A stretch of DNA of 64,000 bases, taken from NCBI GenBank assembly GCA_964624455.1, contig CAZUXD010000007.1:5126-69125 (forward strand), given 5' to 3'. Below the pieces are notes generated by a model, which worked only from the letters and a program-made list of their open reading frames with translations, was not told the origin of the DNA and ran no database searches. Within the stretch, counting starts at the first letter, position 1, and the number at the start of each line of letters is the position of its first letter. Source of the DNA: an uncultured Actinomycetes bacterium (lineage in GTDB: Bacteria; Actinomycetota; Actinomycetes; Mycobacteriales; Nakamurellaceae). The translations under genes and the position numbers were made by a program. Positions 5,623-27,700 of the stretch are shown piece after piece.

Positions 5623-5718
5623 GATCCCAAGGTATCAGATTAATCAAATTATGGCCGTATGTGCGGGCGCCTTGCGCCGGGCCGGCCGGTTGCCGGTTCG
5701 ATCGGGGGCACCGTAGTA

Positions 5719-5734
5719 TCGAACCTATGTTCGG
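5719..5734 (+). promoter_or_regulatory. LexA (SOS) box, actinobacterial type
   Basis: TCGAACCTATGTTCGG compared with the consensus TCGAAC-N4-GTTCGA (15/16 if the last base is counted). A TAGTAT -10-like hexamer (5713-5718) lies immediately upstream. The imuA' ATG (5727) lies inside the box. Confidence 0.75.
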
Positions 5735-8275: not shown

Positions 8276-8934
8276 GGGGTTCCCACCTCCTGGCAGACCG
8301 CTGTGTTTCCGTCGCCGTCGGCCGCCTCGTCCAGGCCGGTGGAGTTGAGCGCGGTGAACGTCACATCGGTGATGCTGATCGTCTGCTGATTGCCGCTGCC
8401 GGCCGTCGAGGACAGGTGGATGCGCAGCGCGCGCTTGTCGAGCACCGTGAACGGCGGCTGGGTGTGCCCGTTCCGCTTGACCGGCGTGATCTGGCCGGCG
8501 AGCACCTCCCAGGAGCTGAGCCCCGATGAGCCGCCGCCGGCGTCGACCGACCAGGTCCGTTCCTGCAGTTGCGACGTGATGGTGTTCACGCGCAACTGGG
8601 TGCAGACCGGGCTGCCGGTGTAGGTGCTCTGGTAGGCGACGTACCAGTTGCCGTCCGCGGCGGTTGTCGAGGCGCCGGAACCGTCGCTGGGGTCGGCGAA
8701 TGCCGAGGCGTACCGCAGCGAGGAGTCGAGCCGGCTGATCGCCGCGTTGATCTGCGCCGAGGTGTCGGTGACCCCCTGGGTCTTGTTGGTCGCGTGGTAC
8801 ATGGACACCATCGCGCCGGTGAAGATCGCCAGGAACAGGCCCATCAGCGCCATGCCCACCATGACCTCGAGCATGGTGATTCCGGAGTCGGCGCCTGCTG
8901 GGCGCCGCGTCGGAGGGCGGTGGGCGCGGATCAT
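8272..8934 (-). CDS. Minor pilin (prepilin-type N-terminal cleavage/methylation domain)
   Basis: 220 aa starting at ATG 8934: MIRAHRPPTRRPAGADSG|ITMLEVMVGMALMGLFLAIF, a class III signal peptide with Glu at +5. ATGA overlap with the upstream giant pilin gene. Confidence 0.75.
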   Translation of the reverse strand: MIRAHRPPTRRPAGADSGITMLEVMVGMALMGLFLAIFTGAMVSMYHATNKTQGVTDTSAQINAAISRLDSSLRYASAFADPSDGSGASTTAADGNWYVAYQSTYTGSPVCTQLRVNTITSQLQERTWSVDAGGGSSGLSSWEVLAGQITPVKRNGHTQPPFTVLDKRALRIHLSSTAGSGNQQTISITDVTFTALNSTGLDEAADGDGNTAVCQEVGTP

Positions 8935-11930: not shown

Positions 11931-11941
11931 GGCGGCCGTTC

Positions 11942-12736
11942 TCAGTTTGCCGCGCCGAGTTGCTCGGCGAGCGCCGCCTCCTGTTTCGGAGTCTGCGGTG
12001 CGACGAAGATCTGCAGTTGGGTCGTCAACACCCACTGCTTCGTCGTCGGAGCGGCTTGCGCGGCGTCGCCGCCGTCCGACACCGGAGCCGGGGTGAACGC
12101 GGCCGAGACCACCAGCGCGCGGCGCGGACCCGCCTTTTCGAGCAGCGAGAGGAAGTCCCGCTGCTCGTCCATGGACCCGTCGGTGACGAGCGCGACGGCG
12201 ATCGAGTACAACTGTCCGGCCGGGCCCTGCGTGCCTTTCGACGTGGATCCCTTGCCCGAGGCGTCGGCGTCGGTCTTGGCGGCGCGGTCGGCGGCATCGC
12301 CCGCCACCGACTCCGCCTTCTCGACCGGGTTGTTCCCGGCCTTGGCGTCGGACGCGCTCGGACTCTTGCCCTTCGGCGCGGCGATCTTGGTGGGCGCGCC
12401 CGGCGTGATGCTGGCCACCGTCACGTGCGCGGCCTTCGCGTGCTCGGCCACCTGGTCGGTGAACGAGTCGAGGTCGTGCTGCACGGGCAGGCCCGCCTGC
12501 AGCACGTCCACTTGCTGCCGCAACTCGCCGGCATGCGCCCGCTCGGCGCGCAACTGGCTGATCTTGTTGTGCAACAGCAGGTTCTGCATCTGGGTATCGG
12601 CCACCTGCTGCTCCGTCGCGGCCTTGCTGTCGAGCTGCGGGGAGAGGAAGAACAGCCATGCGACGGCCGCCAGCGCGACCGCGACGACGACCCCGCCGGC
12701 GATCCACACCCGGTCCATGCGGCGCGCGACCATCAC
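11942..12736 (-). CDS. pilO: PilO-like type IV pilus assembly protein
   Basis: 264 aa with a single N-terminal TM (VWIAGGVVVAVALAAVAWLFF), then a coiled-coil region (…QMQNLLLHNKISQLRAERAHAGELRQQVDVLQ…) and a low-complexity insert. Position is after pilM/pilN. ATGA overlap with pilN. Confidence 0.65.
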   Translation of the reverse strand: MMVARRMDRVWIAGGVVVAVALAAVAWLFFLSPQLDSKAATEQQVADTQMQNLLLHNKISQLRAERAHAGELRQQVDVLQAGLPVQHDLDSFTDQVAEHAKAAHVTVASITPGAPTKIAAPKGKSPSASDAKAGNNPVEKAESVAGDAADRAAKTDADASGKGSTSKGTQGPAGQLYSIAVALVTDGSMDEQRDFLSLLEKAGPRRALVVSAAFTPAPVSDGGDAAQAAPTTKQWVLTTQLQIFVAPQTPKQEAALAEQLGAAN

Positions 12737-13437
12737 TTGCCTCCGGCGGCGTCGAACCGATGCGAGAGCCGGGCGTCGGTCAGGGTGAGCTGCAGGTTGT
12801 ACAGCGTTCCGGTGGCAACCTTCTCGTTGGACGCCGGGAACGGGTCGAAGACGCCGGGGATCGCGGCGAGCTTGGCGATGAAGGCGGGCACGTCCGAGAT
12901 CTTGCTACCGGTGCCGGCCAGCGTGACGCTCCCGATATGGGTTGCGCCCGAAGCATCGAGCACGCCGGCGCCGGCCGCCGGTCGCGCGTTGGCGCCGGCA
13001 ACGGTAGAGGGGATCGTCACGTCCATCTCCTCGATCGTCATGCCGTCCGGAAGTGCCTGCCAGATCTCGCCCAACAGCGCGTCCACGTCGACGTCCGCGG
13101 CCATCAGGGTCGCGGTCTGCCCGCGCACCTCGTCGATGGCCCTTTGCAGCGCGGTGATGTCGGAGTAGGTGCGCTGTTCCTTCAGCAGCGCTTCGGTGGT
13201 GATCTGTTCGGTGGCGAGGTCCTGCGCGGCGAGCTTCGCCAGGCTCTTGGTGTAGACGTAACCGCCGGCGCCGGCCGCGGCGACGAGCAGCAGCGCGAGC
13301 AGCACGACGAACCGGACCACCTTGAGCCGCCGGGATGCGATCAACTCGGGCGGGGTGAGGTCCGCGACGATGTGCCAGCCCGGCATGTCGGTGCTCGTGG
13401 GGGCGGCGGACGGGGCAGCCTCGACCGCGGTCACCAC
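12733..13437 (-). CDS. pilN: PilN-like fimbrial assembly protein
   Basis: 234 aa: …LTPPELIASRRLKVVRFVVLLALLLVAAAGAGGY…, i.e. a TM after a basic stretch followed by a periplasmic-type domain. Located directly downstream of pilM. Confidence 0.65.
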   Translation of the reverse strand: MVTAVEAAPSAAPTSTDMPGWHIVADLTPPELIASRRLKVVRFVVLLALLLVAAAGAGGYVYTKSLAKLAAQDLATEQITTEALLKEQRTYSDITALQRAIDEVRGQTATLMAADVDVDALLGEIWQALPDGMTIEEMDVTIPSTVAGANARPAAGAGVLDASGATHIGSVTLAGTGSKISDVPAFIAKLAAIPGVFDPFPASNEKVATGTLYNLQLTLTDARLSHRFDAAGGK

Positions 13438-13450
13438 GTCACACCTGCGT

Positions 13451-14512
13451 TCATGCCGCCACCCCCAGGGCCAGGCCCACCGCGACGGCGGAGGACTCGG
13501 TCGATTGCCGTGCGGATGGCGTCGAGTCGGTGATGTGCCGCATCGGGGTCGCGAGCGTCACCGGCGTGCCCATCTCTTCCGCTATGTGGTCGACGAGGCC
13601 GGGCAACAGGGCTCCGCCGCCCGTCAGCGAGATCCGCTCGACGCTGACCCGATGTTGGGTGGCGAAGAAGTGGATTGATCCTCGGATCTCGGTGATCAGC
13701 GGCCGGACCGCCTCGCGCAGCGCCCGGGCGGCCTGGCTCTCGCCGTCCAGGCCGATCGTCCGCTTGGCGGATTCGGCCTCCTCCTCGGAGAGGTTCGCCT
13801 GGTCGGCGAGCCTGCTGGTCCACTCGGCGCCGCCGCGCAGCACCACCCGGACGACCTGGGCGATGCCGTTGGTGTGCACCACGATCGTGGACAGGTGCGC
13901 CCCGATGTCGACCAGCGCCTCGATGACGGCGCCGCCCGATCCGATGGACCGCAGCAGGCCGAAGGGTGCGAGGTCGACCCGCGCCACCTTCAGCTTCGCC
14001 TTCTCCACCGCGCGCACCGCGGTCAGCACCGGCCCGCGCGGAATCCCGGTCAACAGGCCGGTGATGGTGCTGCCCCCCGCGTCGGAATCCTCGATGCGCG
14101 AGAAGTCGAGCAGCGCCTGGTCCAGCGGCAGCGCGATCACCTCCCGCGCCTTGAACGGCAGGGTCTGCCGCAGTTGCGCATCGGACAGGTTCGGCAGCTT
14201 GAGGTCTCGCACCACCACTTGCTGGCTGGTCACCCCGAGCACCACGCGCCGCGATTTGATCTTGTTCTCGGCCCACAGCTTCTTCAGGGCGGCGGTGACG
14301 GTGCCGGGATTGACCACGGCACCGTTCACCACCGCACCATCTGGGAGAGGCACAGCGCCCAGGCTGTGCACGCTCACTGTCGGCCGACCCGCCACGACCT
14401 TCGGAATGAGCACCGCAGCACGCACCGCCGTCGCACCGAGATCGACGCCGACGACGCGGCCGCCGGAATTGGTGACGCTCAGCTTGTTCGCGGAGCGTGC
14501 GCGGTTGGTCAT
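13451..14512 (-). CDS. pilM: Type IV pilus assembly protein PilM (actin-like ATPase fold)
   Basis: 353 aa: …VVGVDLGATAVRAAVL…VVVRDLKLP…VDIGAHLSTIVV…LTGGGALLPGL…, a typical PilM/FtsA-like pattern. Confidence 0.85.
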   Translation of the reverse strand: MTNRARSANKLSVTNSGGRVVGVDLGATAVRAAVLIPKVVAGRPTVSVHSLGAVPLPDGAVVNGAVVNPGTVTAALKKLWAENKIKSRRVVLGVTSQQVVVRDLKLPNLSDAQLRQTLPFKAREVIALPLDQALLDFSRIEDSDAGGSTITGLLTGIPRGPVLTAVRAVEKAKLKVARVDLAPFGLLRSIGSGGAVIEALVDIGAHLSTIVVHTNGIAQVVRVVLRGGAEWTSRLADQANLSEEEAESAKRTIGLDGESQAARALREAVRPLITEIRGSIHFFATQHRVSVERISLTGGGALLPGLVDHIAEEMGTPVTLATPMRHITDSTPSARQSTESSAVAVGLALGVAA

Positions 14513-14555
14513 GGAAGGTCCTTGGGTTGGTCAGAACTGGACGTCGGACGTCAAA

Positions 14556-15011
14556 TCACGTGGTTGGCGGTGCCGCGGTACCTCCACCGACGGAACCGCC
14601 AGCAGAAGTGTCGAAGGTGAATGCGTTGCCCGAAGTGTGCTTTCCGTTGGGGTTGTACCCCGTGATCGTCACACCGTCCCCGCCGCTGTTTGCCTCAATT
14701 GTCATGACGGTCCCGGCAGAAAGCAGCACCGGATTGTCGGCACAAAGGTCGAAAGAGCCGGGGCCGGTGGATGTTGCGAGGCTTTCCCACGTGTGAGTAT
14801 CGGTGTAGCATTCCTGCACAACCACCGCCGCATTCCGAACATCGGCCTGCGTGGCCTTGTCCACCGCGTTCTTCTGGTAGTTCAAGTACAGCGGAATCGC
14901 GATGGCGATCAGGATGCCGATGATCACCACGACCACCAGCAACTCGATCAGGGTAAACCCCTTGTCCTCTCGAGCCCGGCGGGCCCGAATCGACTCGTAC
15001 CGTGACAACAT
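14556..15011 (-). CDS. pilA: Major type IV pilin
   Basis: 151 aa from ATG 15011: MLSRYESIRARRAREDKG|FTLIELLVVVVIIGILIAIAIPLYLNYQ. Canonical G/FTLIE cleavage-methylation motif. GGGAGG RBS upstream. A Cys pair lies in the C-terminal half. Confidence 0.9.
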   Translation of the reverse strand: MLSRYESIRARRAREDKGFTLIELLVVVVIIGILIAIAIPLYLNYQKNAVDKATQADVRNAAVVVQECYTDTHTWESLATSTGPGSFDLCADNPVLLSAGTVMTIEANSGGDGVTITGYNPNGKHTSGNAFTFDTSAGGSVGGGTAAPPTT

Positions 15012-15074
15012 GTGAGCCTCCCAGCTCCTTTTCCAGTGCGCCTGCCGGATGCAGGACGCCACGGGTATTGCGGT

Positions 15075-16301
15075 CTATTGCGCGATGCTCTGGTAGATGG
15101 TGAACATCGGCAGATAGAGCGAGATCACCATGGAGCCGATGACGGCGCCCAATACGACCACCATCAGCGGTTCGATCGCGGACGCGAGCGCCTCGGTCGC
15201 CGTTTTGACCTCATGGTCGTAGTAATCGGCAGTCTTATCGAGCATTTCAGTGATTTGGCCGGTCTCTTCTCCGACCTCGACCATCTGCACCACCATCGGC
15301 GGGAAGACCGGGTGCTCGGACATCGGCTCGGACATGCTCCGCCCGCCGCGGACGGCCGCGCGCACGTCGGCCATGGCGCTTCCGATCACGGCGTTGCCCG
15401 CGGTGCCGCCGACGACCTCCAGGGCCTGCAGCGCCGGCACCCCGACCTGCAGCAGCGTGCCGAGGTTTCGCGCCCAGCGGGCGAGCGCGATCTTGGTGAA
15501 GAGGGTGCCGAACACCGGAAGCTTCAGCTTGAGCCGGTCGACCTTCAGTTGGAAGGCCTCGTTGGCGCGGTATGCCTTGCGGTATGCGGTGACCGAGGCG
15601 ATCAGTACGACGAGGAACGCCGGGACCCACCACCACGCGTTGTGCGACAGCGCGATCAGGATCTTGGTCGGCAGCGGCAACGTACCGCCCAGATCGGTGA
15701 ACATCTTCTCGAACACCGGCACGATGAAGACGATGACGCCGATCCCCAGGATCAGCGAGAAGCACAGCACGATGACGGGGTACGTCATGGCGCCCTTGAT
15801 CTTGGCGCGGAGCTCCGCGTCCGCCTCGTACATGGTGGCGATCCGGCCGAGCGCCTCGTCCAGGAAACCGCCGGTCTCGCCGGCCCGCACCATGTTGACC
15901 ATGAGGGTGGGGAAGTGGTCGGGATGCTCGGCCATCGCCGTGGAGAGCGGCGAGCCGTGCTGCACGTCGGCCTTGATGCGGCGGACCGCCGACTTCAGCC
16001 CCGGCTTGGTGATCTGCTGCTCCAGGATCGTCAGGGCCCGCAGCAGGCTCAGGCCCGACGACGTCATGGACGCGAACTGCCGGGTGAACAGGGCCAGGTC
16101 CTTGGGCTTGGTGCGCTGCCGAAGGCCCGGAATGTTGATCTCGCGCTGCAGGCCGTGGCCCGCGGCGGCGATCGACGTCGGGGTGAGCTTGCGGACCGTC
16201 AGGGTCTGCGCGGCAGACTCGGCGCTGTCGGACTCGATGGTCCCCTTGACGAGCTTCCCGGAGGAATCCAGCGCCTCGTAGGCGAAGGCGGTCGCAGCCA
16301 T
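15075..16301 (-). CDS. pilC: Type IV pilus platform protein (GspF/PilC family)
   Basis: 408 aa with two GspF-type repeats (…LSLLRALTILEQQ… / …VPALQALEVVGG…) and three TM segments. Confidence 0.9.
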   Translation of the reverse strand: MAATAFAYEALDSSGKLVKGTIESDSAESAAQTLTVRKLTPTSIAAAGHGLQREINIPGLRQRTKPKDLALFTRQFASMTSSGLSLLRALTILEQQITKPGLKSAVRRIKADVQHGSPLSTAMAEHPDHFPTLMVNMVRAGETGGFLDEALGRIATMYEADAELRAKIKGAMTYPVIVLCFSLILGIGVIVFIVPVFEKMFTDLGGTLPLPTKILIALSHNAWWWVPAFLVVLIASVTAYRKAYRANEAFQLKVDRLKLKLPVFGTLFTKIALARWARNLGTLLQVGVPALQALEVVGGTAGNAVIGSAMADVRAAVRGGRSMSEPMSEHPVFPPMVVQMVEVGEETGQITEMLDKTADYYDHEVKTATEALASAIEPLMVVVLGAVIGSMVISLYLPMFTIYQSIAQ

Positions 16302-16377
16302 GCCGGATTCATCGGCAGGTCAGCAAGGAACTTGAACGATCCGTCCACGGCTCCGGCCGGCCGATGGCGACGGCCGC

Positions 16378-18045
16378 TCAGACCGTGACCCGCAGCACCT
16401 CTTCCAGCGTCGTCAGGCCCTGCTTGGCCTTGTCCAGGCCGTCCTCCCGGAGTGGGATCATCCCTTCGGCGCGCGCCGCCTTCGCGATGTCGCTGGCGGC
16501 CGCATCCGAGACGGTCAGCCGTTCGATCTCCTCCGAGACCGGCATCACCTCGTTCACCGCGAGCCGCCCGCGGTAACCCGTACCCGAGCAGGAGCGGCAG
16601 CCGACCGCGCGGAAGAGCTCGTCCGGACGGCCGAGCGTCTCCCACGGCCAGCCGGCCGCGGTGAGGTCCTCGCTCGCCGGCTGGTAGGACTCTTTGCACC
16701 AGTCGCACAGGCGCCGCACCAGCCGTTGCGCCAGCACCGCGTCGATCGACGAGCCCACCAGGAACTGTTCGATGCCCATCTCCACGAGCCTCGTCATCGC
16801 CGACGGCGCGTCGTTGGTGTGCAAGGTGGAAAGGACGAGGTGCCCGGTGAGCGCGGCCTCCACCGCGAGTTGCGCCGTGACCCGGTCGCGGATCTCGCCG
16901 ACCAGCACCACGTCCGGGTCGGAACGCAGGATCGCCGGCAGCACCGCGGCGAAGGTCAGGCCCGCCTTGGGGTTCACCTGGATCTGGTTGATGCCGTCGA
17001 TCCGGTACTCGACCGGGTCCTCGACCGTGATGACGTTGACTTCCGGCCGGGCGATCTCGGTCAGGGTGGCGTACAGCGTGGTGGACTTGCCCGACCCCGT
17101 GGGCCCCGTCACCAGCACCATGCCGTGCGGTTTGGTGAAGCTGGCCGAGAAGCGGCGGTAGGTCTCCTCCGCGAAGCCGAGCTTTCGCAGGTTCAGGTCG
17201 ATGCTTCCGGTGTCGAGGATCCGCAGCACGATCTTCTCGCCCCACACCGTCGGCAGCGTCGCCGTTCGCAGGTCCACGTGCCGGCCGCCCACCTCCATGG
17301 TGATGCGGCCGTTCTGCGGCACCCGGCGTTCGGTGATGTCGAGCCCGGACATGATCTTCAGCCGGGAGATCAGCGCCGCCTGGATCGGGCGCGGAACGGT
17401 GTCGGTGTGGTGCAGCACGCCGTCGATCCGCACCCGCACCCGCATGTCGTGCTCGCTGGGTTCGAGGTGGATGTCCGAGCCGCGGGAGGTGATGGCCCGC
17501 TCCAGCAGGTTGGACACGAAGCGGACCACGGGGGCGTCGTCGTCGACGTCGGCTAGGGCGTCGGACAGCGCGCTGTCGTCGACCATGCTGGCCGCGGCCT
17601 CGCCGAGGTCGGTGTTGCTTCTCGTGAAGCGATCGAGCAGCTTCGTCAGGTCGCCGCTCGAGAGCACGACCGGCCGGACCTGCAGCCCCGTCGCGGCGCG
17701 GATGTCGTCGATGGCGAGCACGTTGCCGGGGTCGTCCAGCGCGACGGTGACGGTGGAATCGGTGGCCGACACCGGAACCATCTGGTGCCGCCGAGCCAGC
17801 GCGAGCGGGACCAGCGACATGGCCTTCTGATCGATCGTCATCGAGCTCAGTTCGGCGACGTCGAGGCCGTAGGCGTAGGCGATGGCGGAGGCCAGTTCGA
17901 ACTCGGTGACGACCTGGTCGTCGACCAGCACGGTCCGCAGGGGGCGCCCGCTCCGCTCGGCGTTGGCGGCCGCGGCTTGCAGCGTGTGCTCGTCGACCCC
18001 GCGCGAGCGCAGCGTGTTGAACACCGTCTGGCTGGCAGGATCCAT
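16378..18045 (-). CDS. pilB: Type IV pilus assembly ATPase (GspE/PilB family)
   Basis: 555 aa. N-terminal GSPII_E_N-like domain, Walker A GPTGSGKSTT, Asp/His boxes, and a C-terminal tetracysteine (CDWC…CRSC). Confidence 0.9.
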   Translation of the reverse strand: MDPASQTVFNTLRSRGVDEHTLQAAAANAERSGRPLRTVLVDDQVVTEFELASAIAYAYGLDVAELSSMTIDQKAMSLVPLALARRHQMVPVSATDSTVTVALDDPGNVLAIDDIRAATGLQVRPVVLSSGDLTKLLDRFTRSNTDLGEAAASMVDDSALSDALADVDDDAPVVRFVSNLLERAITSRGSDIHLEPSEHDMRVRVRIDGVLHHTDTVPRPIQAALISRLKIMSGLDITERRVPQNGRITMEVGGRHVDLRTATLPTVWGEKIVLRILDTGSIDLNLRKLGFAEETYRRFSASFTKPHGMVLVTGPTGSGKSTTLYATLTEIARPEVNVITVEDPVEYRIDGINQIQVNPKAGLTFAAVLPAILRSDPDVVLVGEIRDRVTAQLAVEAALTGHLVLSTLHTNDAPSAMTRLVEMGIEQFLVGSSIDAVLAQRLVRRLCDWCKESYQPASEDLTAAGWPWETLGRPDELFRAVGCRSCSGTGYRGRLAVNEVMPVSEEIERLTVSDAAASDIAKAARAEGMIPLREDGLDKAKQGLTTLEEVLRVTV

Positions 18046-18269
18046 GGTGCTCCTCGGCTCAAGAATGGGTGGTCGGGCTGGGCGACGATGCGTCGCCGAG
18101 CGTATCCCCGCGGCGCCCCCCGATCGCCCATCCGTGGTCTTTTTCGGCGCGCGCGTTCAACTCTTGAGCGTTGCTGCCGTTTAGTACCGGTGACGAGACC
18201 GCCGGGGCTTGGTACCGGTGACGAAACCGCCGAGGCGGCGCGCCGAACGGGGCGCGCGCAGCGGGCGGT

Positions 18270-19610
18270 ATGGCGTGGGAGGGCGTCTGTGCGATGACGA
18301 TGCTGACCGACCATTCAGGTGCCGGAGGCACGATGGGCCGCCACGGCGCGCCGGACGGCGCTGCCGGCGCACCGGATGGCCTCGACGACGGTGCCCTGAA
18401 GGACGCCGCGGAAATCGGGCGGCCGGAAGACGGGCGCGCTGCTGTCGCGGCGCCCGGCGGGTTTCGCGGCACGGCGGCACCGGACGGAAACGGCGCGTCG
18501 GCCGGCGTTGCGGCGCACAACGGGGCAGAGGCGCACACCGGGGCAGACACGGCGGAGATCGACCGCCTGCTGGTGACGATGGTCAACGACGGTGGGTCCG
18601 ATCTGCACGTCACCTCGGGGATCGCGCCCTGCATCCGGATCGACGGCGTGTTGCGCCCTCTAGCGGAGGCGTCCGTGCTGTCCTCGGCCGACACGGAACG
18701 GATGGTGCGCTCGTTCCTGACGGATGCCGAATGGGCGCGGTTCGTGCGGGACAACGAGCTCGATATCGCCTACGCCATCGCGGGTGTCAGCCGTTTCCGG
18801 GTGAACATCTACCGGCAGCGGGGCTCGGTCGGGGCCGCGTTCCGGGGCATCCCGCACCACATTCGAAGCCTCGCCGACCTCGGCATGCCCGGCTCGGTGG
18901 AACAGTTCGCCGCGCTGCCGCGCGGCCTGGTGCTGGTGACGGGACCGACGGGCTCCGGAAAGTCCACCACCCTGGCAAGCCTGCTGGACGTGGCGAACAA
19001 GACCCGCTTCGGGCACATCGTCACCATCGAGGACCCGATCGAATACCTGCACCGGCATGGCACCTGCGTGGTCAACCAGCGCGAGGTCGGCAGCGACACC
19101 GCGGATTTCGCCGTCGCGCTCAAGCATGCCCTGCGCCAGGACCCCGACATCATCCTGGTCGGGGAGTTGCGGGATCTGGAGACCACGTCGGTTGCGATCA
19201 CCGCGGCCGAGACCGGGCATCTCGTGCTCGCGACGCTGCACACCAAGTCGGCCGCCCAGACCATCGATCGGTTGATCGACATCTACCCGCACGCCCAGCA
19301 GCAGCAGATCCGGGCCCAGTTGGCCAACGCGCTGGAGGGCGTCGTGACGCAGGCCCTGCTGCCGCGCCGCGAGGGCGGCCGGGTGGTGGTGTGCGAGGTG
19401 ATGGTGTCGACCTCCGCGATCCGCTCGCTGATCCGTGAGGACAAGGTCCACCTCATCCCGAGCTACATCCAGTCCGGCGGTGACGTCGGCATGGTCAGCT
19501 TCGATCAGCATCTGGCGCATCGTTACCGCGACGGTCTGGTCAGCAAGACGGTCGCGATGGATGTCGCGCAGGACCAGGGCGAGTTCCAGCGGCTGGCGGG
19601 CCTGATATAG
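18270..19610 (+). CDS. pilT: Twitching-motility retraction ATPase PilT-like, with N-terminal low-complexity extension
   Basis: The PilT core starts at …EIDRLLVTMVNDGGSDLHVTSG…. Walker A GPTGSGKSTT, plus …LRQDPDIILVGELRD…TGHLVLATLHT…. The start is ambiguous (ATG 18270/18294/18300/18333); every option leaves a >=75-aa Gly/Ala/Pro/Asp-rich extension. Confidence 0.85.
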   Translation: MAWEGVCAMTMLTDHSGAGGTMGRHGAPDGAAGAPDGLDDGALKDAAEIGRPEDGRAAVAAPGGFRGTAAPDGNGASAGVAAHNGAEAHTGADTAEIDRLLVTMVNDGGSDLHVTSGIAPCIRIDGVLRPLAEASVLSSADTERMVRSFLTDAEWARFVRDNELDIAYAIAGVSRFRVNIYRQRGSVGAAFRGIPHHIRSLADLGMPGSVEQFAALPRGLVLVTGPTGSGKSTTLASLLDVANKTRFGHIVTIEDPIEYLHRHGTCVVNQREVGSDTADFAVALKHALRQDPDIILVGELRDLETTSVAITAAETGHLVLATLHTKSAAQTIDRLIDIYPHAQQQQIRAQLANALEGVVTQALLPRREGGRVVVCEVMVSTSAIRSLIREDKVHLIPSYIQSGGDVGMVSFDQHLAHRYRDGLVSKTVAMDVAQDQGEFQRLAGLI

Positions 19611-19622
19611 GTCGCGTGGAGC

Positions 19623-19733
19623 GGATCGTTTGGATCGTTTGGATCGCTTGGATCGTTTGGATCGTTTGGATCGCTGACCGCTTGGACGGTTGGACCGCTT
19701 GGACCGTTCGGACCGTTTAGACCGCTTAGACCT
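19623..19733. repeat. 9-bp satellite, ~12 units (GGATCGTTT drifting to GGACCGYTT / AGACCGCTT)
   Basis: Begins 13 nt after the pilT stop. Read directly: ggatcgttt ggatcgttt ggatcgctt ggatcgttt ggatcgttt ggatcgctg … ggaccgctt ggaccgttc ggaccgttt agaccgctt. Confidence 0.9.
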
Positions 19734-19884
19734 TAGGTTGCTGGAGCGCTGGATCGCCGCCGGGGAGGCGGAATTTCAAGCCGGTCTTCGCGACGGTTCG
19801 CGTCCAGAGCGGGTCCGGGTTCCGGACGGTGGTCGTAGTGGGCCCATCCGGAGGCCTGCTACACGATGTTGGGCCTTGCATCGC

Positions 19885-20466
19885 GTCGCACGTGCTTCGA
19901 CATTTCGGACATGCGTGCCGTTCGGCATTCGGGATCCAGGTGTCGCCTTGGCCATGACGTCGCACGTGCTTCGACATTTCGGACATTCCTGTGCCGTATG
20001 GCGCCTTGCAAGTCCATTCATCCGAATGCCGCAGTCGTGGCCGCTGGAGTTTTCACGACGAATGTAGATACTGCTGTCGCTTCGGCTTGACGCGGCATGA
20101 AGTTGCCAACTGGCCCAGGCAAATATGACGCATAGTCGCCGTGTGGTTCGACGGTGGCCCGGGAGTCGCGGCGCGGGAGCCAAGATCGGGTCGCGTCGCA
20201 CGTGCTTCGACATTTCGGACATTGCGCCGTGACGTGATGTCCCAGTCGGCGCGGCGTGCTCCTACGCAGGGTCCCGCCCTGGGGCGGCTCTGGGCGGTAA
20301 CCGAAAGCGGACGCAGCCGGCGGCGCCGACATGGTGAGTCCAGTGCCGCACGGTGAGTCAGTGCGCGCTGCACGTGCTTCGACATTTCGGACATACAGCG
20401 GCTCGGTCAGCGGGCAAGGGGCCGTCGACTTGCGTTCGCGCCGCACGTGCTTCGACATTTCGGACA
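19885..20466 (+). repeat. Five dispersed direct copies of a 24-28-nt element (core CACGTGCTTCGACATTTCGGACA)
   Basis: Core starts at 19889, 19963, 20199, 20371 and 20444, all in the same orientation, with spacings of 74/236/172/73 nt. Copies 1-3 extend to GTCGCACGTGCTTCGACATTTCGGACAT. The copies fall in different reading frames relative to each other. Confidence 0.9.
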
Positions 20467-20595
20467 CGGCACGCTTTCAATCGGGCATCTGTTCATTCTA
20501 GTCACTTGCTACACATGTCCGTCCCGCTGAATGGACCGTTGTCGTACCTTCGTTCTAAACTCAGAACATAGTTCAGGAGCCGTTTGGAGGGTGTG

Positions 20596-22725
20596 ATGGA
20601 CGTCTGGGGGTCCGGGGAGTGGTGGGCAGCCTGGCAGAGTGCGCCTGCCCTGGAGGGTACAGCGGGGGGAGGGTACGCATCCTTCGCTGAGGAGGACAGC
20701 GCTGAGGAGGACAGCGTTGAGGAGGACACGGCCGGCGCGCGGGATGCCGGCCGCGCCAACTGGGGCAGCGGCAGCGGCCGCGCCAACTGGGGCAGCGGCC
20801 GCGCCAACAAGGCCATCTCGGTGCATGCCTCGCACCCGCCCCGCACCGAGGGAGGACCCTCGCCTGCTACCGCGGGCGAGGCCGGTGAATCCTCGTCATC
20901 GACAGAAACGCCAGCGAGGCCGGGGGCGGAGGCAACACGGCCTCCGTCATCGAACGGCCGGGCCGACTTGGAGCGGTTGGAGGCCCGGATCCGCGGAATG
21001 GCGGCCAACTTGGCGGCTTCGACGTGCGAGTGGTTGCACCTGATCGGGCAGTTCGACCGGGCCGAGGGTTGGGCTGGGGTCGGGATCCAGTCCTGCGCCG
21101 CATGGTTGTCGTGGACGTGCTCGGTCGCACCGGGGACCGCGCGCGAATACGTGCGCATCGCGCGGATGCTGCCGGCATTGCCGCTGGTGGACGAGGCATT
21201 TACGGCGGGGCGTTTGTCGTACTCCAAGGTGCGGGTGCTGGCCCAGGTCGCCGGCGAGGTGGACGAAGCCGTGCTGGTGGAGCAGGCGCAGGTGCAGACG
21301 GTGTCCCAACTCGAACGGACGGTCCGGGCCTACCGGCGCGGCGATGGGCGCGATCAGCAGCGTAAGCGTCGGGCGGTCTGGCGATGGGATGACGACGGGA
21401 TGCTTGTCCTATCGGCCCGGCTGCCACCCGACGAGGGCGCCCTGCTCCTCGCCGCACTGGAACGAGCGAGGGACGACATCGCTCCTCGCCCCGAACCCTC
21501 ATGCCCCGAACCCTCATGCTCCGAACCCTCATGCCCCGAACCTGTTGCCGGGCAGGATGATGCCACCCCTGGAGATGCCGCACCGGTAGGCGAGCCCACC
21601 GGAGCAATCATGTGCTCGGCATCCGGCGGCGGCACGATTGCCGATTTTGCCGGCGTAGCGGGTGATTTCGTGGGCACAGCGGGTGATTTCGTGGGCACAG
21701 CGGGTGATTTCGTGGGCGCAGCCGATGATTTCGCAGCAGCCGATACCGCCGCCGCGGCTGTCGCCCCCGCACCGGCGGGGCATCCGATGCCACGACCAAC
21801 CGGCGACGACCGGCAGCGAGCCGCGCTGGCGGGCGCCGACCCGCTCGGGATGGCCGGTGCGGACATGCTCGTCGCGCTCGCACAACGGGCGCTGGCGGCG
21901 GGGGAGGTGGACGGTTCAGGTGACGATCGTCATCTCCTGATACTGCATGCGGATCTCGACCACCTCGTCGATGACGACGAATCGGGGCCACGCGATTCCC
22001 AGCCGGTCGGCGGATTAATCGGCTCCGAAGCTGAGCTACACGAAACCAACGGTGGGCAAGCCGATTCCGGCGCCGAATTGACCGATAACGGCACGGGGTC
22101 AATCGGATTCGCTGATGATCATGCAGATTCCCCTCCCGGCGGGCGCCGTCCCGGGGTGCGGCCCGCGGCCGGGTCCACCCTTGCCCGGGCGCGCTGCCAT
22201 CTGGAGGACGGTCCGGGCCTAGATCGTCGGATGGCGCAGCGGATTGCTTGCGATGCAGCACTTGTCGCAGTGCTGCACCATGTCGGCGAAGGGGAACCGC
22301 TGCGGTTGGGACGAAAGACCCGGACCATCTCGCCGGCGCAGCGCCGCGCCCTGCGCGTTCGCGACGGCGGCTGCCGGTTCCCGGGTTGCCATCGCCGCAA
22401 GCACCTTGAGGCGCATCACGTACGGCACTGGTCGCTCCTTGGACCCACCGACCTGGAGAACCTGGTCCTGCTGTGCCGCTTTCACCACATGCTCATCCAC
22501 GAGGGTGGTTTCCGGGTGTCGGCAACTTCCCAAGGATCGTGGGCGTTTCGTGATGCTCGCAGTGTGCCGGTGACGATGGCTCCGCGGCTACCCGGTCATG
22601 ATGGTGCAGCGCTGCCGGTGCAAGTGGGCGATCCGATGGCGCTTCTGCCGGGTTGGCGCGGCGAGCCGTTCCACCTGGCCGAAACCGTCGCCGTTCTGAT
22701 GCGAGCCGCCGGGGCGGGTACGTGA
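20596..22725 (+). CDS. DUF222 + HNH endonuclease (13E12-repeat-family-like)
   Basis: ORF 20584-22725; ATG 20596 follows a GGAGG RBS. DUF222-like region: …LAASTCEWLHLIGQFDRAEGWAGVGIQSCAAWLSW…AREYVRIA…. C-terminal HNH: …RDGGCRFPGCHRRKHLEAHHVRHW…NLVLLCRFHHMLIHEGG…. The N-terminal ~120 aa and the start are uncertain. Confidence 0.8.
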   Translation: MDVWGSGEWWAAWQSAPALEGTAGGGYASFAEEDSAEEDSVEEDTAGARDAGRANWGSGSGRANWGSGRANKAISVHASHPPRTEGGPSPATAGEAGESSSSTETPARPGAEATRPPSSNGRADLERLEARIRGMAANLAASTCEWLHLIGQFDRAEGWAGVGIQSCAAWLSWTCSVAPGTAREYVRIARMLPALPLVDEAFTAGRLSYSKVRVLAQVAGEVDEAVLVEQAQVQTVSQLERTVRAYRRGDGRDQQRKRRAVWRWDDDGMLVLSARLPPDEGALLLAALERARDDIAPRPEPSCPEPSCSEPSCPEPVAGQDDATPGDAAPVGEPTGAIMCSASGGGTIADFAGVAGDFVGTAGDFVGTAGDFVGAADDFAAADTAAAAVAPAPAGHPMPRPTGDDRQRAALAGADPLGMAGADMLVALAQRALAAGEVDGSGDDRHLLILHADLDHLVDDDESGPRDSQPVGGLIGSEAELHETNGGQADSGAELTDNGTGSIGFADDHADSPPGGRRPGVRPAAGSTLARARCHLEDGPGLDRRMAQRIACDAALVAVLHHVGEGEPLRLGRKTRTISPAQRRALRVRDGGCRFPGCHRRKHLEAHHVRHWSLLGPTDLENLVLLCRFHHMLIHEGGFRVSATSQGSWAFRDARSVPVTMAPRLPGHDGAALPVQVGDPMALLPGWRGEPFHLAETVAVLMRAAGAGT

Positions 22726-24620
22726 TGACGGCCGCAAACGCTACCGGATGGGCACCGGCCGGGCAGGCGTCCGGGGCTCGTCCGTCCGCGCATGGCCGCG
22801 GTCGTACCCGCCGCAGAAACGAGCCGTACACCAGCCCTGCGCCCGATAACCGGCCGGCCAGCGGCCCGCCCGGCCCGGCGCCGGCCCCTCCTCCTTCCGC
22901 CGCGGTCGCCGCATCTTCCGGCGGCGGCCTGCCCGCCCGATCCCGCACTCTGATCATCTGGTGCCCGGACTGGCCGGCGGTCGCCGCCGCCCGGAACGCC
23001 GGCCATCCAACGGAAGGGGCCGTTGCGGTCTTCCACGCGAACCGGGTGCAGGCTTGCTCGGCGGCGGCCCGCGCCGATGGGGTCCGCACGGGCATGCGCC
23101 GCCGGGACGCCCAGTCCCGCTCGCCCGGCCTGGCGGCATTGCCCGCCGATGCGGATCGCGATGCGCGGCTGTTCGAGCCGGTCGCCGCGGCGGTGGAGGC
23201 GATCGTCCCCGGGATAGAGGTGCTCCGGCCCGGCATGCTCGCGTGCGCGCTTCGCGGGCCGGCCCGGTATTTCGGGTCGGAGACCGCAGCAGCCGAACGG
23301 CTCGTCGACGCGGTCGAGGCGCTGGATGTGGAATGCCGGATCGGCATCGCCGACGTGTTGCCGGTCGCGGTGCTGGCCGCCCGGCAGTCGGTGATCATCC
23401 CGCCGGGCGGTGACGCGGTGTTCTGCGCCCGGCTGCCGATCGTGGAGCTGGCGCGTGATCCGGCCATTGCTTCGCCAGAGCGAATGCAGCTCGTTGATCT
23501 GCTGATGCGGTTGGGCATCACCACCGCGGGGGCGTTCGCGGCACTTCCCTTCGACAAGGTTGCCGCGCGGTTCGGGGCGGAGGGGATGGTGCTGCACCGG
23601 CTGGCGTCCGGCCGGGCCGAGCGCGGACTGTCCCGGCGCCACATCGACACCGACCTGTCCGTGGAGAAGGTCTGTGACCCCCCGCTGGAACGGGTCGACA
23701 CCGCGGCGTTCGTCGCGCGCGCGCTGGCCGAGCAGTTTCACGCCGGGCTGGCCGCCGCCGGGCTCGCCTGTACCCGGCTGGCGATCACCGCCAGCACCGA
23801 GCGTGGCGCGAGGTTGACCCGAATCTGGCGGGGCGCTCGCCCGTTGTCCGCGGCCGCCACGGCCGATCGGCTGCGCTGGCAGTTGGACGGCTGGTTGACC
23901 AACGGTTCCCGGGTAGGCGCCGGCGACGCCGATCGAGCTGTCGGCGCCGGCCGCGTCGACGCCAGCCACATCGATGACGTTGGTTCCGGGCACATCGATA
24001 CCGCCGATCCGAGCGATCGACCGGGGGCGATCACCAAGCTCCGACTGGAACCGATCGAGGCGGTCGGGGCCGGGCTGATCCAGTACGGGCTGTGGGGGCA
24101 GGACGGGGAGGGCGAACACCGAGCCGGGTGGGCGTTCGCCCGGGTGCAAGGGCTGCTCGGCCCGGACGCGGTCCTGGCCGCCACCCCCTCCGGCGGTCGC
24201 GGTCCGGCCGACCGCGTCACCCTGACCGGTTGGGGGGAGGAGAGGATCCCGAGGCGCGATCCGACCGCCCCCTGGCCCGGGGTGCTGCCGTCGCCGGCGC
24301 CGGCTTCGCACCTTCGGGCCGGCGGTGGCGCGGCCGCCGGAAACGTCGCTTCCGGGGCCACCGTCACCGTCTCGGATCCCGCTGGCCGCGAGGTCGCCGT
24401 CACCGACCGGGGAATGCTCACCGGACCGCCCGCCGCGGTCGGCGGCAACCGGGTGCTGTCCTGGGCTGGGCCCTGGTTGCTGGACGAGCGTTGGTGGTCT
24501 GGCCCCGTCACCGCGCCAGCGGCCCGGACGGCCCGGATGCAGGTGATCGCCGACGGGATGTCCCCGATGCTGCTCGGGTTCGGCTCGCGCGGCTGGCAGG
24601 TCGAGGCGGTGTACGACTGA
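22725..24620 (+). CDS. imuB: ImuB, Y-family-polymerase-like mutasome subunit
   Basis: ATG 22725 overlaps the HNH TGA (GTGATGA). After a ~95-aa Pro/Ala-rich N-terminus the core is …RTLIIWCPDWPAVAAA…AVFHANRVQACSAAARADGVRTGMRRRDAQ…FEPVAAAVE…GIADVLPVAVLAAR…. Directly upstream of dnaE2. Confidence 0.85.
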   Translation: MTAANATGWAPAGQASGARPSAHGRGRTRRRNEPYTSPAPDNRPASGPPGPAPAPPPSAAVAASSGGGLPARSRTLIIWCPDWPAVAAARNAGHPTEGAVAVFHANRVQACSAAARADGVRTGMRRRDAQSRSPGLAALPADADRDARLFEPVAAAVEAIVPGIEVLRPGMLACALRGPARYFGSETAAAERLVDAVEALDVECRIGIADVLPVAVLAARQSVIIPPGGDAVFCARLPIVELARDPAIASPERMQLVDLLMRLGITTAGAFAALPFDKVAARFGAEGMVLHRLASGRAERGLSRRHIDTDLSVEKVCDPPLERVDTAAFVARALAEQFHAGLAAAGLACTRLAITASTERGARLTRIWRGARPLSAAATADRLRWQLDGWLTNGSRVGAGDADRAVGAGRVDASHIDDVGSGHIDTADPSDRPGAITKLRLEPIEAVGAGLIQYGLWGQDGEGEHRAGWAFARVQGLLGPDAVLAATPSGGRGPADRVTLTGWGEERIPRRDPTAPWPGVLPSPAPASHLRAGGGAAAGNVASGATVTVSDPAGREVAVTDRGMLTGPPAAVGGNRVLSWAGPWLLDERWWSGPVTAPAARTARMQVIADGMSPMLLGFGSRGWQVEAVYD

Positions 24621-24747
24621 TGGGGCGCGGTGACGTAGGCGCTGCTCACGGCGGTGACGGTGGCGGTGCGGTTCGCGGTGACGATGCGGCTTACGGCTGT
24701 GACGATGCCGTCTACGGCGATGACGGCGTTCGGCTGAGGTGGCCTTG

Positions 24748-27700
24748 ATGGGCTGGTCCAATCCGCCGGTGCCCTGGGACGAACTGTCCCGGATGATGGA
24801 GGGCCGAGCTCCGCGCGGCGATCGGCCGCGGCCCGCGCTGCGCACGGTGCCGGCAGACGAAGTGTCCCGGCGCCGCGGCACGGGCCGTCGGCCCGATCCG
24901 TCTGCCGGCGCTGCCCCGTCCGCCGGCACCGATCCGACCCCCGGCGCCGATCCGCCTGCCGGCGCTGCCCCGTCCGGCGGCACCGATCCGAACCTCGGCA
25001 CCGATCCGAACCCCGGCGCACCCGCGTCGGCCGTGGTGCCCTACGCGGAACTGCACTGCCATTCGTCGTTCAGCTTCCTGGACGGCGCCTCCACCCCCGA
25101 GCAACTGGTCGCCGAGGCGCTGCGGCTGGACCTGACCGCCCTGGCGCTCACCGACCGGGACGGGTTCTACGGGGTCGTCCGGTTCTGCGAGGCCGCCCGC
25201 GGAACGGGCCTGAAAACCCTGTATGGCGCGGAGCTTTCGCTCGGGTTGCCGCGACCGCAGCTCGGTGAGCCCGACCCTGTCGGCGAGCATCTGCTGGTGC
25301 TGGTCCGCGGACAGGAGGGGTACCGACGGCTGTCCAGGCAGATCACCCACGCGCAGCTCGCCGGTGGGGAGAAGGGCCGCCCGGTCTACGACCTGGACAT
25401 GCTGGCCGGCGCCGCCGACGGGCACTGGCTCGTCCTCACCGGCTGCCGCAAGGGGGCCGTCCGGCGGGCCCTACGCCGCGCCGGACCGGACGGTGCCCTG
25501 GCCGAAGTGCGCACGCTGGTCGACCGTTTCGGCGCCGACAACGTGGCCGTCGAACTCACCCGGCACCTGGTACCCACCGACGACGAGGACAACGACGCGC
25601 TGGCCGGCATCGCCGCCCGGCTGGACCTTCCGGTCGTGGCGACCACCGCGGCGCACTATGCCGACCCGCGGGCCGCCCGGCTCGGCGCCGCCGTGGCCGC
25701 GGTCCGCGCTCGGCGCAGCCTCGCCGAGGCCGACCCCTACCTTCCGGCGGGCCCCAGCGCACACCTGCGATCGGGCGTCGAGATGGCCCGCCTGTTCGCC
25801 CGGTACCCGCAGGCGGTTTCCACCGCGGCGGTGCTGGGCGAACAGTGCGCATTCGACCTGCGCCTTCTCGCGCCCCAACTACCGCCGTTCGACGTGCCGC
25901 CAGGTCATGACGAGGCGAGCTACCTGCGTGAGCTCACCCTGTCCGGGGCGCTTCGCCGCTACGGCCCGCCGGAGCGAAACCCGAAGGCGTACAAGCAGAT
26001 CGAGAAGGAGCTGCGCGTCATCACCGAGATGAACTTCCCCGGTTACTTCCTCGTCGTGTACGACATCACCGAGTTCTGCCGGCGGAGCGACATCCTGTGT
26101 CAGGGCAGGGGATCTGCTGCGAACTCGGCGGTGTGCTACGCGCTGGGGATCACCGCGGTGGACGCGGTCGGCTACGACCTGCTGTTCGAACGATTCCTGG
26201 CCCCCGAACGCGACGGCCCACCCGATATCGATGTGGACATCGAATCCGACCGGCGCGAGGAGGTGATCCAGTACGTCTACCGGAAATACGGCCGGGAGCG
26301 GGCTGCGCAGGTCGCCAACGTCGCCACCTTCCGGCCGCGGATGGCGGTGCGGGACATGGCAAAAGCCCTGGGCTACTCGCCCGGCCAACAGGATGCCTAC
26401 TCCAAACAACTCGACCACTGGACCCCGCTGGCCGATCAGGTGGCCGACGTCGCCGCCGACCGCGGCGCGTCCGGCGCCGGCTTGTTCGCCGCGAACGCCG
26501 ACCGCGGTAGCACCGTCCCGGGCGGCACCGTTCCGGGCGGCACCGGCCGGTATTCCGCCGGGCACGACACCGGAATCCCGCGCGACGTGGTGGAACTGGC
26601 CCAGCAGATCCAGGACCAGCCCCGGCACCTGGGCATCCACTCCGGCGGCATGGTGATCTGCGACCGGCCGGTAGCCGAGGTGTGCCCGGTGGAGTGGGCG
26701 CGGATGGCGGATCGCAGCGTGCTGCAGTGGGACAAGGACGACTGCGCCGCCATCGGCCTGGTCAAGTTCGACCTGCTGGGCCTGGGCATGCTCTCGGCGC
26801 TGCATTACGCCGTCGATCTGGTCCGGGAGCACGAGGGGATCGAGATCGACTTCGCCGCACTGGACCTGGCCGAGCCGGCGGTCTACGAGATGCTGCGGCG
26901 GGCCGACTCGATCGGGGTCTTCCAGGTTGAGTCCCGGGCGCAGATGGCCACGTTGCCGCGCCTGAAGCCGCGCGAGTTCTACGACCTGGTCGTCGAGATC
27001 GCGCTGATCCGGCCCGGTCCCATTCAGGGCGGCTCGGTGCATCCCTACCTGCAGCGCCGGGAGGCGGTCCGGCAGGGCACCTGGCGGGGGCCGTTCGTCG
27101 AGCACCCGGCCATGCAGCGCGCGCTGGGAAAGACCTTGGGGATCCCGCTGTTCCAGGAACAGCTGATGGAACTTGCCATCGACGTGGCCGGGTTCGACGC
27201 CGGGGAGGCCGACCAACTGCGCCGTGCGATGGGTTCCAAACGCTCCGCCGAGAAGATGCGCCGGCTCCGCGATCGGCTGTACACCGGGATGCGCGAATTG
27301 CACGGCATCACCGGCGAACTGGCCGATTCCATCTACGAGCGGCTGCGGGCGTTCGCCAACTTCGGCTTCGCCGAGTCGCACGCGCTGAGCTTCGCCTCGC
27401 TGGTGTTCTACTCCGCCCACCTCAAGCTGCACCACCCGGCGGCGTTCTGCGCCGCGCTGCTGCGCGCCCAGCCGATGGGCTTCTACTCGCCGCAGTCGCT
27501 GGTCGCCGACGCCCGCCGGCACGGGGTCGAGGTGCGCCGCGCGCACGTCAACAGCTCCGTCGCGGCGGCCGGGTTGGAGCCGGGGCCGCGGGGCCGACCA
27601 GCGGTGCGGCTGGGTCTCTCGGGCATCCGGACCATCGGCGACGAGTTGGCCGAGAAGATCCTCGCGGCGCGTCCGGTGGCCGGGTATCCGGACATCGAAT

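Follow-up and report, generated by a model that had tools for sequence, protein, structure and literature searches.

Introduction

Tandem iron boxes recognized by IdeR lie upstream of bfrB in Mycobacterium tuberculosis, and the mycobacteriophage 'stoperators' are asymmetric repressor sites that keep one orientation relative to transcription. RsrR of Streptomyces venezuelae, a member of the Rrf2 family, has class 1 full sites and class 2 half sites, both of which are bound in vivo (PMC5015018). Here we describe five direct repeats in the non-coding DNA ahead of an operon for a DUF222-HNH endonuclease, ImuB and DnaE2, found in a stretch of 64,000 nucleotides (hereafter the window) from an uncultured actinomycete of the Nakamurellaceae (GenBank assembly GCA_964624455.1). 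Each repeat is one half of a 40-bp palindrome that recurs in Nakamurella and in related metagenome contigs, and we put the chances at about even that the five repeats are an array of putative sites for a sequence-specific, multimeric DNA-binding protein, of the operator or upstream-site type, forming part of the damage-inducible DUF222-HNH/imuB/dnaE2 unit.

The array resembles those of IdeR in spreading several dyad-symmetric sites over a few hundred base pairs upstream of a promoter, and a triple array of the present family likewise precedes a ferritin gene (L021; contigs and loci other than the window are given L numbers). It departs from the IdeR arrays in a sequence unrelated to the iron box, in its 40-bp site of five boxes, in having half-sites only at the HNH operon, and in a distance to the promoter that varies by clade. 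With RsrR, the family shares a motif found in two forms, a full inverted repeat and a half site, the half class here having its own, weakly conserved second half; however, a comparison of layout rather than of sequence gives 16-8-16 here versus 11-3-11 for RsrR, and no Rrf2 gene is linked to the sites. Like stoperators, the copies in the window are multiple identical asymmetric sites that are co-oriented with transcription in non-coding DNA, and a stoperator-like roadblock role would suit a gap in which no terminator is predicted. Unlike stoperators, they have a chromosomal context, are longer and contain a dyad, and nothing similar was found in phage collections.

The imuB and dnaE2 genes belong to the actinobacterial machinery of damage-induced mutagenesis, including that behind the evolution of drug resistance in mycobacteria. 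Their control by LexA and by PafBC is already known, and a third, strongly conserved cis-element array before this operon would mean an additional regulator or insulator of mutagenesis in this lineage. As judged by searches of Rfam, of phage, plasmid and viral collections and of the literature, the element is a previously undescribed, lineage-specific cis-element family. Operator-type arrays are already known as a kind; what is new is the five-box architecture, the half-site arrays, and the consistent link to DUF222-HNH/mutasome operons. Because the first gene of the operon is DUF222-HNH and its paralogs carry analogous arrays, the elements also provide a testable handle on the large actinobacterial 13E12/DUF222 family, which is linked to genome rearrangements. 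Interest would be high only if the binder is the HNH nuclease or if the array gates damage-induced mutagenesis; a selfish palindrome would be of local interest only.

Results and discussion

Five identical copies in a single non-coding gap

The 23-mer CACGTGCTTCGACATTTCGGACA occurs in the window as five exact copies, all on the + strand, with starts at 19889, 19963, 20199, 20371 and 20444 and copy-to-copy spacings of 74, 236, 172 and 73 nt. No further match was found in the 64 kb with up to 3 mismatches allowed, and the chance expectation for the set is 0 in 100 shuffles. With a position-weight matrix derived from 23 arms of the family, the five copies score 38–40 bits, the next site in the window 17 and the best shuffle 15; no degenerate extra copies rise above background in the long spacers. 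The repeats had first been noticed in a sequence-only reading of the window, and its five perfect cores, single orientation and spacings were all reproduced by exact search.

Identity among the copies begins one base before the 23-mer, at GCACGTGC, and partial similarity spans ∼39 nt. Copies 1 to 3 have CGTCGCACGTGC in common. Exact core matches, register and flanks define copy 1 (19883–19912) as a half-element of the form GCGTC-GCACGTGC-TT-CGACA-TTT-CGGACA-T, and copies 2 (19957–19986), 3 (20193–20222) and 4 (20365–20394) as half-elements with left flanks ACGTC, GCGTC and GCGCT, respectively, all on the + strand. The promoter-proximal copy 5 (20438–20466, + strand), delimited by core match and cross-species alignment, has the left flank GCGCC and is followed by C rather than T. 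It is the ortholog of the single copy in L016/L037 and in L036, and lies 73–76 nt upstream of TGTCGTAC in all three. The spacers show no mutual similarity (z<1), which rejects a tandem duplication of a 74-nt unit, and spacer sequence has no match in the window or in 49 loci, which rejects copying from elsewhere. A CRISPR array is dismissed because the spacings are irregular, the sole Rfam CRISPR-DR hit lies elsewhere and far below threshold, and the neighbours carry no cas domains.

All five copies are confined to one 985-bp gap (19611–20595) between the pilT stop and the HNH start codon, delimited by the gene map, by synteny differences, and by the coding measures below. It is the largest gene-free gap in the window (962 nt when measured between stop-to-stop open reading frames). 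Reading frames within the gap have a third-position G+C content (GC3) of 0.53–0.70 versus 0.73–0.94 for the flanking genes, and for a 148-residue frame spanning three copies a search of 5.8 billion proteins gave no relative at E≤10. Both results support the earlier statement that these ∼0.6 kb contain no credible gene. The same reading held that every copy creates a minus-strand ATG; this is so for copies 1–4, but copy 5 gives GTG (GGACAC). A minus-strand 'MSEMSKHV' coding sequence is rejected on this ground and by flat GC3 and the absence of a homolog, and the family adds an in-frame TAG (ATGTCCGTTATGTCGTAG in L020 and L033) and the lack of a start codon in L006 and L042. The agreement of exact counts, matrix scores, GC3 of the gap and homolog search confirms the array as an observation.

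A family of 40-bp palindromes

What the sequence-only reading described as a repeat is real in its copies, but that reading overlooked that the repeat is half of a dispersed palindrome family. A degenerate scan recovered the family motif TGTCCG-N3-TGTCG-N2-GCACGTGC-N2-CGACA-N3-CGGACA, 40 bp in length, from Nakamurella and related metagenome contigs, and the window element corresponds to its centre and one arm. When 185,579 species, each represented by one genome, were scanned with a 20-mer, the one true match was at a contig end of Nakamurella lactea, where it makes up the right half of a longer palindrome. Across 21 independent arms, CACGTG, CG.CA and CGGACA show little or no variation, the positions between these blocks being A/T-rich or free, and in the family as a whole the arm is more conserved than the centre. 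There are two classes of site: full sites have both arms, and half sites have the centre, one arm, and a recurrent, different left flank (GCGTC/GCGTT).

Full sites are found in varied surroundings. Three of them, spaced by 87 and 85 bp, lie between hisI and the ferritin gene in L021; single ones lie ahead of a PAP2 gene, lnt and a GH63-like gene, and others follow genes for a NarL-type regulator, RidA and a luciferase-like protein. In L030, one full site separates a MazE-like gene from a divergently oriented EcoEI_R_C gene, a position that speaks against a role as terminator. L032 combines two half sites with one full site, and a half site ∼50–80 nt upstream of a likely leaderless mycothione reductase (mtr) promoter is kept in three contigs. 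No DUF222 gene was found near the non-operon sites (ferritin, mtr, PAP2, lnt and others) within the fetched DNA. The contigs examined hold about one locus per 100 kb or more, with no transposase beside any site. Several contigs end within tens of bases of a family element (L001 1–50, L006 2679–2745, L008 2735–2784); since palindromes and repeats are expected to break short-read assemblies, copy numbers in assemblies are lower bounds.

Mycobacterial TRIT elements and the repetitive extragenic palindromes known as REP or BIME are hairpin repeats. They too are conserved intergenic palindromes of ∼40 bp, sometimes clustered and often placed right after stop codons, and full sites of the present family fold at −12 to −23 kcal/mol; among ∼13 of them, 4 are perfect 40-bp palindromes (perfect forms are seen in L007, L032 and L033) with hairpins of about −21 to −23 kcal/mol. 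The copies could then be relics of a selfish palindrome of the REP kind or of a miniature inverted-repeat transposable element (MITE) that inserted time and again into a permissive intergenic region, losing one arm on each occasion, an origin that we consider decidedly unlikely. Besides the full form, such an origin would suit two palindromes alike at 39 of 40 positions at separate loci of apparently one organism (L024, L033), the several sites 4–10 nt past a stop codon (L007, L024, L021, L006), the contigs that end at an element (L001, L006, L008), and the wealth of other tandem repeats in the gaps. It is opposed by the low copy number, in the tens rather than the hundreds as judged from the contigs examined, and by the absence of terminal inverted repeats, target duplications, and a transposase or Y1-transposase gene at any locus. 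The divergent promoter region that holds the L030 site and the lack of hits in viral, phage and plasmid collections count in the same direction, as does the half form, which together with its own left flank is kept at an orthologous position and orientation although other intergenic DNA is saturated with change.

The locus in the window departs from REP, BIME and TRIT repeats in that the copies are non-palindromic halves without a hairpin, and their position and orientation relative to one operon are kept across species. Their predicted folds of −3.3 to −3.5 kcal/mol are at shuffle level, so that they are unlike REP/BIME units in this respect, the stable stem-loop being found only in the full form elsewhere. 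Termini of a MITE or insertion sequence are rejected, because all copies are direct, no inverted partner exists in the 64 kb, and the spacers are unrelated and have no homolog.

Conservation ahead of orthologous operons

Orthologous loci were gathered through homologs of the HNH protein. In all the Nakamurella-like orthologous loci examined, the DUF222-HNH gene precedes imuB-dnaE2 and is itself preceded by a non-coding gap of 0.3–1.4 kb. Seven distinct orthologous loci have 1, 2 or 5 half-sites in this gap. The number is one in L036, L016/L037 and L040, two in L039, L041, L043 and L042, and five in the window. The arm of every half-site points to the operon, and the upstream neighbour of the gap differs by locus (a lectin gene, imuA', pilB or pilT). 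A further half-site in L006 lies downstream of pilus/lectin genes, in a contig that ends 43 nt later and does not show the operon.

The element is 93–100% conserved where the surrounding DNA is unalignable. Over 31 nt, the copy in the window shows no difference from that of L016, and that of L036 differs at 2 positions. The surroundings have diverged far more, which indicates strong selection on the element: identity is ∼68–70% in the promoter region and ∼55% between the HNH proteins, and the remainder of the gap is beyond alignment. From the end of the proximal copy to the promoter motif is 73–76 nt in the three closest species, and the nearest site in other clades is 113, 248, 391 or ∼610 bp from the promoter. 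Copies within a locus are identical or nearly so, and the sequence differs between clades (CCACGTGAACCGTCATTTCGGACA in L039, L041 and L043; GCACGTGCAGCGGCATAACGGACA in L042). In L039, L041 and L043, the gap and HNH gene are exactly what separates imuA' from imuB; in the window, a type IV pilus cluster of 13 kb has come in besides.

The constant strand of the copies, all of which lie on the operon's strand in all lineages, would also be expected if the element worked as RNA, serving as a recurring motif for the binding of protein or RNA within a long leader or a non-coding transcript running toward the operon (for example a sponge-like RNA or a processing signal). Conservation of every base, 'spacer' positions included, is as expected for reading by base pairing, and no intrinsic terminator is predicted from pilT to the operon. 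We nevertheless hold a role as RNA to be highly improbable: the full form is symmetric and therefore strand-neutral, and it is also found between divergent genes; the half-element has no stable fold; and the mismatches of imperfect palindromes are, by inspection, not preferentially G-U compatible on one strand. Neither this array nor six related ones match any of 4227 Rfam families; the best hit of an Rfam 15 covariance scan within 19000–21200 has E=2.9, and on the six arrays nothing reached the gathering score. The suggestion of small RNA or MITE termini made in the sequence-only reading is not upheld, as the copies match no Rfam family, form no hairpin and lack terminal inverted repeats, and their spacers are unrelated.

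Identical direct cores separated by unrelated DNA of irregular length, together with the arm-centre-arm architecture, invite comparison with lox-, dif- or att-like sites. The copies would then be cores of a site-specific recombination site, with inverted arms around CACGTG, duplicated by serial insertion or rearrangement, and the spacers would be remnants. The gap is indeed a rearrangement breakpoint between lineages, at which the pilus cluster differs in orientation and position. Even so, this is in our estimate the least probable explanation. No recombinase gene is present in the window or at any locus, the centre is symmetric, there is no inverted partner in the window, and spacers of 50–213 nt are too short for mobile cassettes. 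An active recombinase would moreover delete five direct sites, and relatives keep 1–2 copies stably. A tRNA-derived att site is rejected, as the only tRNA in the window is at 49 kb. The REP-like, RNA and recombination-scar explanations are thus each less well supported than an array of protein-binding sites.

A putative operator-type array

Several properties of the family together fit recognition by a multimeric DNA-binding protein. The motif is intergenic and dyad-symmetric, with conserved blocks at fixed spacing, a block-wise pattern that is expected for protein contacts, and it occurs in full and half classes together, for which RsrR offers a precedent. The sites are strictly intergenic and low in copy number, form arrays upstream of promoters, and keep a lasting association of site, orientation and gene; in seven orthologous loci the site-gene link and the orientation are retained although the flanks have diverged. 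Among the options given by the sequence-only reading, that of a multi-site operator is the best supported, given that every orthologous locus examined keeps the sites ahead of the operon with unchanged orientation and that they are far better conserved than their surroundings.

Each site in the window consists of the 8-bp dyad GCACGTGC and two direct sub-sites of 8–9 bp on its operon-proximal side (CGACA-TTT and CGGACA-T), and the complete site at other loci carries the same arm on both sides, making five boxes in 40 bp. We infer that a protein might bind the dyad as a dimer and then spread cooperatively to the arm sub-sites. With 1–5 sites placed 70–600 bp upstream of the RecA-NDp/LexA promoter, it could add a further layer of control to the operon for the nuclease and the mutagenic polymerase. 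The effect may be repression by looping, a roadblock or insulator against read-through from the co-directional upstream gene, or upstream activation.

Some observations weigh against such an array. No regulator gene is linked to the sites at any locus. Clades differ in how far the nearest site lies from the promoter, and a classical fixed-position activator does not fit such variation. Even where the sequence varies from locus to locus, the copies of any one locus agree with each other, in the midst of unrelated spacers; ordinary transcription-factor sites seldom show this pattern, which may point to a copying mechanism or to constraint at each base. The perfect palindromes among the full sites would also suit a structure-based element, and the genes beside the other sites form no obviously coherent regulon.

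The damage promoter of the operon

The operon has a damage promoter of its own. A RecA-NDp (PafBC-type) motif, TTGTCGTAC-N8-TAAACT, lies at 20539–20561 on the + strand and is the sole match in the window, with a transcription start predicted near 20568; the published consensus is tTGTCRgtg-8nt-TAnnnT (PMC5656591). The form TTGTCGTAC-N8-TAnnnT is conserved in all eight orthologous loci. A motif scan also located a LexA-box-like dyad, GAAC-ATA-GTTC with a 3-nt spacer (GAACATAGTTC), at 20564–20574 on the + strand. In orthologs, the spacer is 4 nt in six loci (GAAC-N4-GTTC in five, AAAC-N4-GTTC in L040), and L042 lacks the box. The 3-nt spacer in the window reflects either a loss of LexA control in this genome or a 1-nt assembly error. 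The RecA-NDp motif and LexA dyad beside the array account for the damage control of the operon, and the array is something additional. The sequence-only reading rightly set the 24-mer apart from LexA boxes and RecA-NDp motifs, but it missed that both motifs are present downstream, at 20539–20574.

The array and the RecA-NDp/PafBC and LexA sites share the same operon and the same intergenic region. The element arms TGTCG/TGTCCG recall the TGTCR core, and a single change separates TCGGACAT from a LexA half-site (CGAACAT). In contrast to the damage motifs, the element has neither TAnnnT at the right distance nor GAAC-N4-GTTC. Specifically, no dyad of the SOS box (GAAC-N4-GTTC; TCGAAC-N4-GTTCGA) is present inside it, and neither strand has TAnnnT at +16 from TGTC, so that both identities are rejected. 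The inner arm of the element varies by lineage (TGTCGAAG, TGCCGCTG, TGACGGTT), whereas the promoter motif TTGTCGTAC is invariant. A single protein that reads both the element and TTGTCGTAC in one manner is therefore excluded, and PafBC is rejected as the binder of the element.

Paralogs and the HNH nuclease as a candidate binder

Three of the four DUF222-HNH paralogs that are unlinked to imuB, all three in other actinobacterial contigs, have repeated palindromic elements upstream of their own RecA-NDp promoters, and a canonical or near-canonical LexA dyad is also present in the promoters of the L046 and L047 paralogs. There are two perfect copies of CGTTCCCGCGGGAACG in L047 (2872–2924), three related copies spaced by 75 and 117 bp in L046 (3635–3843), and two 58-nt units containing ATCGACAT...CCGGACAT in L044 (3608–3941); the L049 paralog has no array. 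Comparison of these upstream sequences suggests that such arrays may be a general feature of the DUF222-HNH gene family, and it may be to the DUF222-HNH gene, and not to imuB-dnaE2 itself, that the element is tied.

The sites could belong to the DUF222-HNH gene unit: the HNH protein would bind or cut them, and they would serve it as autoregulatory operators or as nuclease recognition sites, the array being tied to imuB-dnaE2 only because the HNH gene was inserted between imuA' and imuB. We regard this as unlikely, although it is the strongest of the rival explanations. DUF222-HNH is the only gene common to all array-bearing loci, and the variant of the element changes along with the HNH lineage, but such co-variation of site and protein is equally expected from plain co-descent. 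The 2–3 palindromic copies before the RecA-NDp(+LexA) promoters of three imuB-unlinked paralogs are in its favour and the bare L049 paralog is not. A site at L007 162–201 joins a paralog-type centre, CCCGCGGG, to the TGTCCG arms of the family, and the exact separation of imuA' from imuB by gap and HNH gene in L039, L041 and L043 fits the proposed insertion. On the other side, the same motif is found at loci without a DUF222 gene in the fetched DNA (ferritin, mtr, PAP2, lnt), and DUF222 has no recognisable DNA-binding fold. The AlphaFold2 model of the DUF222-HNH protein is confident for residues 120–250 and for the HNH domain, and a Foldseek search of this model against the Protein Data Bank matched only the HNH part to solved structures; a recognisable DNA-binding fold in DUF222 is accordingly not supported. 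The fold prediction itself neither supports nor contradicts a DNA-binding domain in DUF222.

The 13E12/DUF222 loci of M. tuberculosis are induced by damage, act as recombination-prone hotspots for inversion and gene conversion, and have no defined function (PMC13157036, PMC13061034), which counts in favour of sites that belong to the HNH gene unit. In a more far-reaching version, which we rate as very unlikely, the elements would be recognition and possibly cleavage sites of damage-induced DUF222-HNH nucleases, each lineage keeping its own array with further copies elsewhere, at which programmed breaks or protein-DNA complexes would arise after damage. If true, this would give the 13E12/DUF222 family a function and would place damage-induced breaks or complexes at defined intergenic palindromes beside the mutasome genes.

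Other candidate identities

Beyond the operator-type array and the alternatives already weighed, other identities were considered for the element and rejected. Plasmid or phage iterons, proposed in the sequence-only reading as an iteron-like array, are at odds with a housekeeping chromosomal context (his genes, a type IV pilus cluster, glnE and ftsY) that has no replication gene, and the plasmid, phage and viral-contig collections gave only chance-level matches. A promoter of the extracytoplasmic-function type (TGTCCG-N17-CGAC, minus strand) would suit copies 1–3 but neither copies 4–5 nor the L039 clade, and transcription from it would run away from the genes. A cluster of DnaA boxes is rejected because the arms agree with the actinobacterial consensus TTGTCCACA at only 5–6 of 9 positions and carry, in TGTCCG, an invariant G that is incompatible with it. 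The mycothione reductase half-site is directly preceded by TGTGGACAA (L020 1368–1376; L022 1217–1225), the exact complement of that DnaA-box consensus.

A ParB site was assessed against the parS consensus, the 16-bp palindrome tGTTtCACGTGAAAc. The window centre GTCGCACGTGCTTC matches it at 9 of 14 positions, and the best-conserved part of the family is the arm rather than the centre; parS is therefore rejected. Only the centres of two distant variants, GATTCACGTGAAAC (L040 3959–3993) and GTTTCACGTGAACC (L039 4993–5021), match this consensus at 13 of 14 positions. A literature search for the motif strings GCACGTGC, TGTCCG/CGGACA and TTCCCGCGGGAA found nothing relevant.

The operon and neighbouring features

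Pfam assignments agree with the flanking genes as first read from the sequence. The operon begins with the 13E12-repeat-type DUF222 and HNH endonuclease gene (20596–22725, + strand, ATG at 20596; 709 residues, protein P0001), followed on the same strand by the IMS/Y-family-like imuB (22653–24620, start codon uncertain) and by dnaE2 for an error-prone DNA polymerase III alpha subunit (24739–28479). The best named homologs of dnaE2 all come from Nakamurella spp. at 64–76% identity, which places the window in or near that genus. The N-terminal 110 residues of the HNH protein are predicted to be disordered, and its gene has in-frame tandem repeats of 15 and 27 nt (20685–20803). Upstream of the gap, the co-directional pilT-like gene ends at 19610.

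The only canonical LexA box in the window, TCGAACCTATGTTCGG (5717–5732), overlaps the ATG of imuA' in a leaderless layout. This gene (5717–6587) encodes a homolog of the MT3502_N protein with weak similarity to RecA; it lies apart from imuB, with the type IV pilus cluster of 13 kb, the gap and also the HNH gene in between. Because imuA' with its own LexA box sits apart from imuB, the mutasome genes are split into two damage-regulated units. In a comparison with L006, L016, L036 and L040, the type IV pilus/lectin/He_PIG cluster (6617–19610) has its own arrangement in each lineage, either inverted or with another gene next to the gap; this marks the gap as a repeated rearrangement breakpoint.

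At its distal edge, 13 nt past the pilT stop, the gap contains a 9-bp tandem array of ∼11 units (19623–19732, + strand) in which GGATCGTTT drifts to GGACCGCTT. Some of its units (GTTCGGACC) resemble the element arm TTTCGGACA, with TTCGGAC in common, and on this resemblance the tandem array is possibly related to the 9-bp-periodic arm. The gaps of relatives hold other tandem arrays, with a 19-nt unit containing TTGTCGGAA in L016 and units of 16 and 15 nt in L040. Between the proximal copy and the promoter, a three-species alignment reveals a conserved block, AATCGGGCAtcTGTTcAtTCtA (20479–20500, + strand), that reads TCGGGCAGTTGTTGACTCCA in the relatives, the window version being the more diverged; it might be a second promoter or another binding site.

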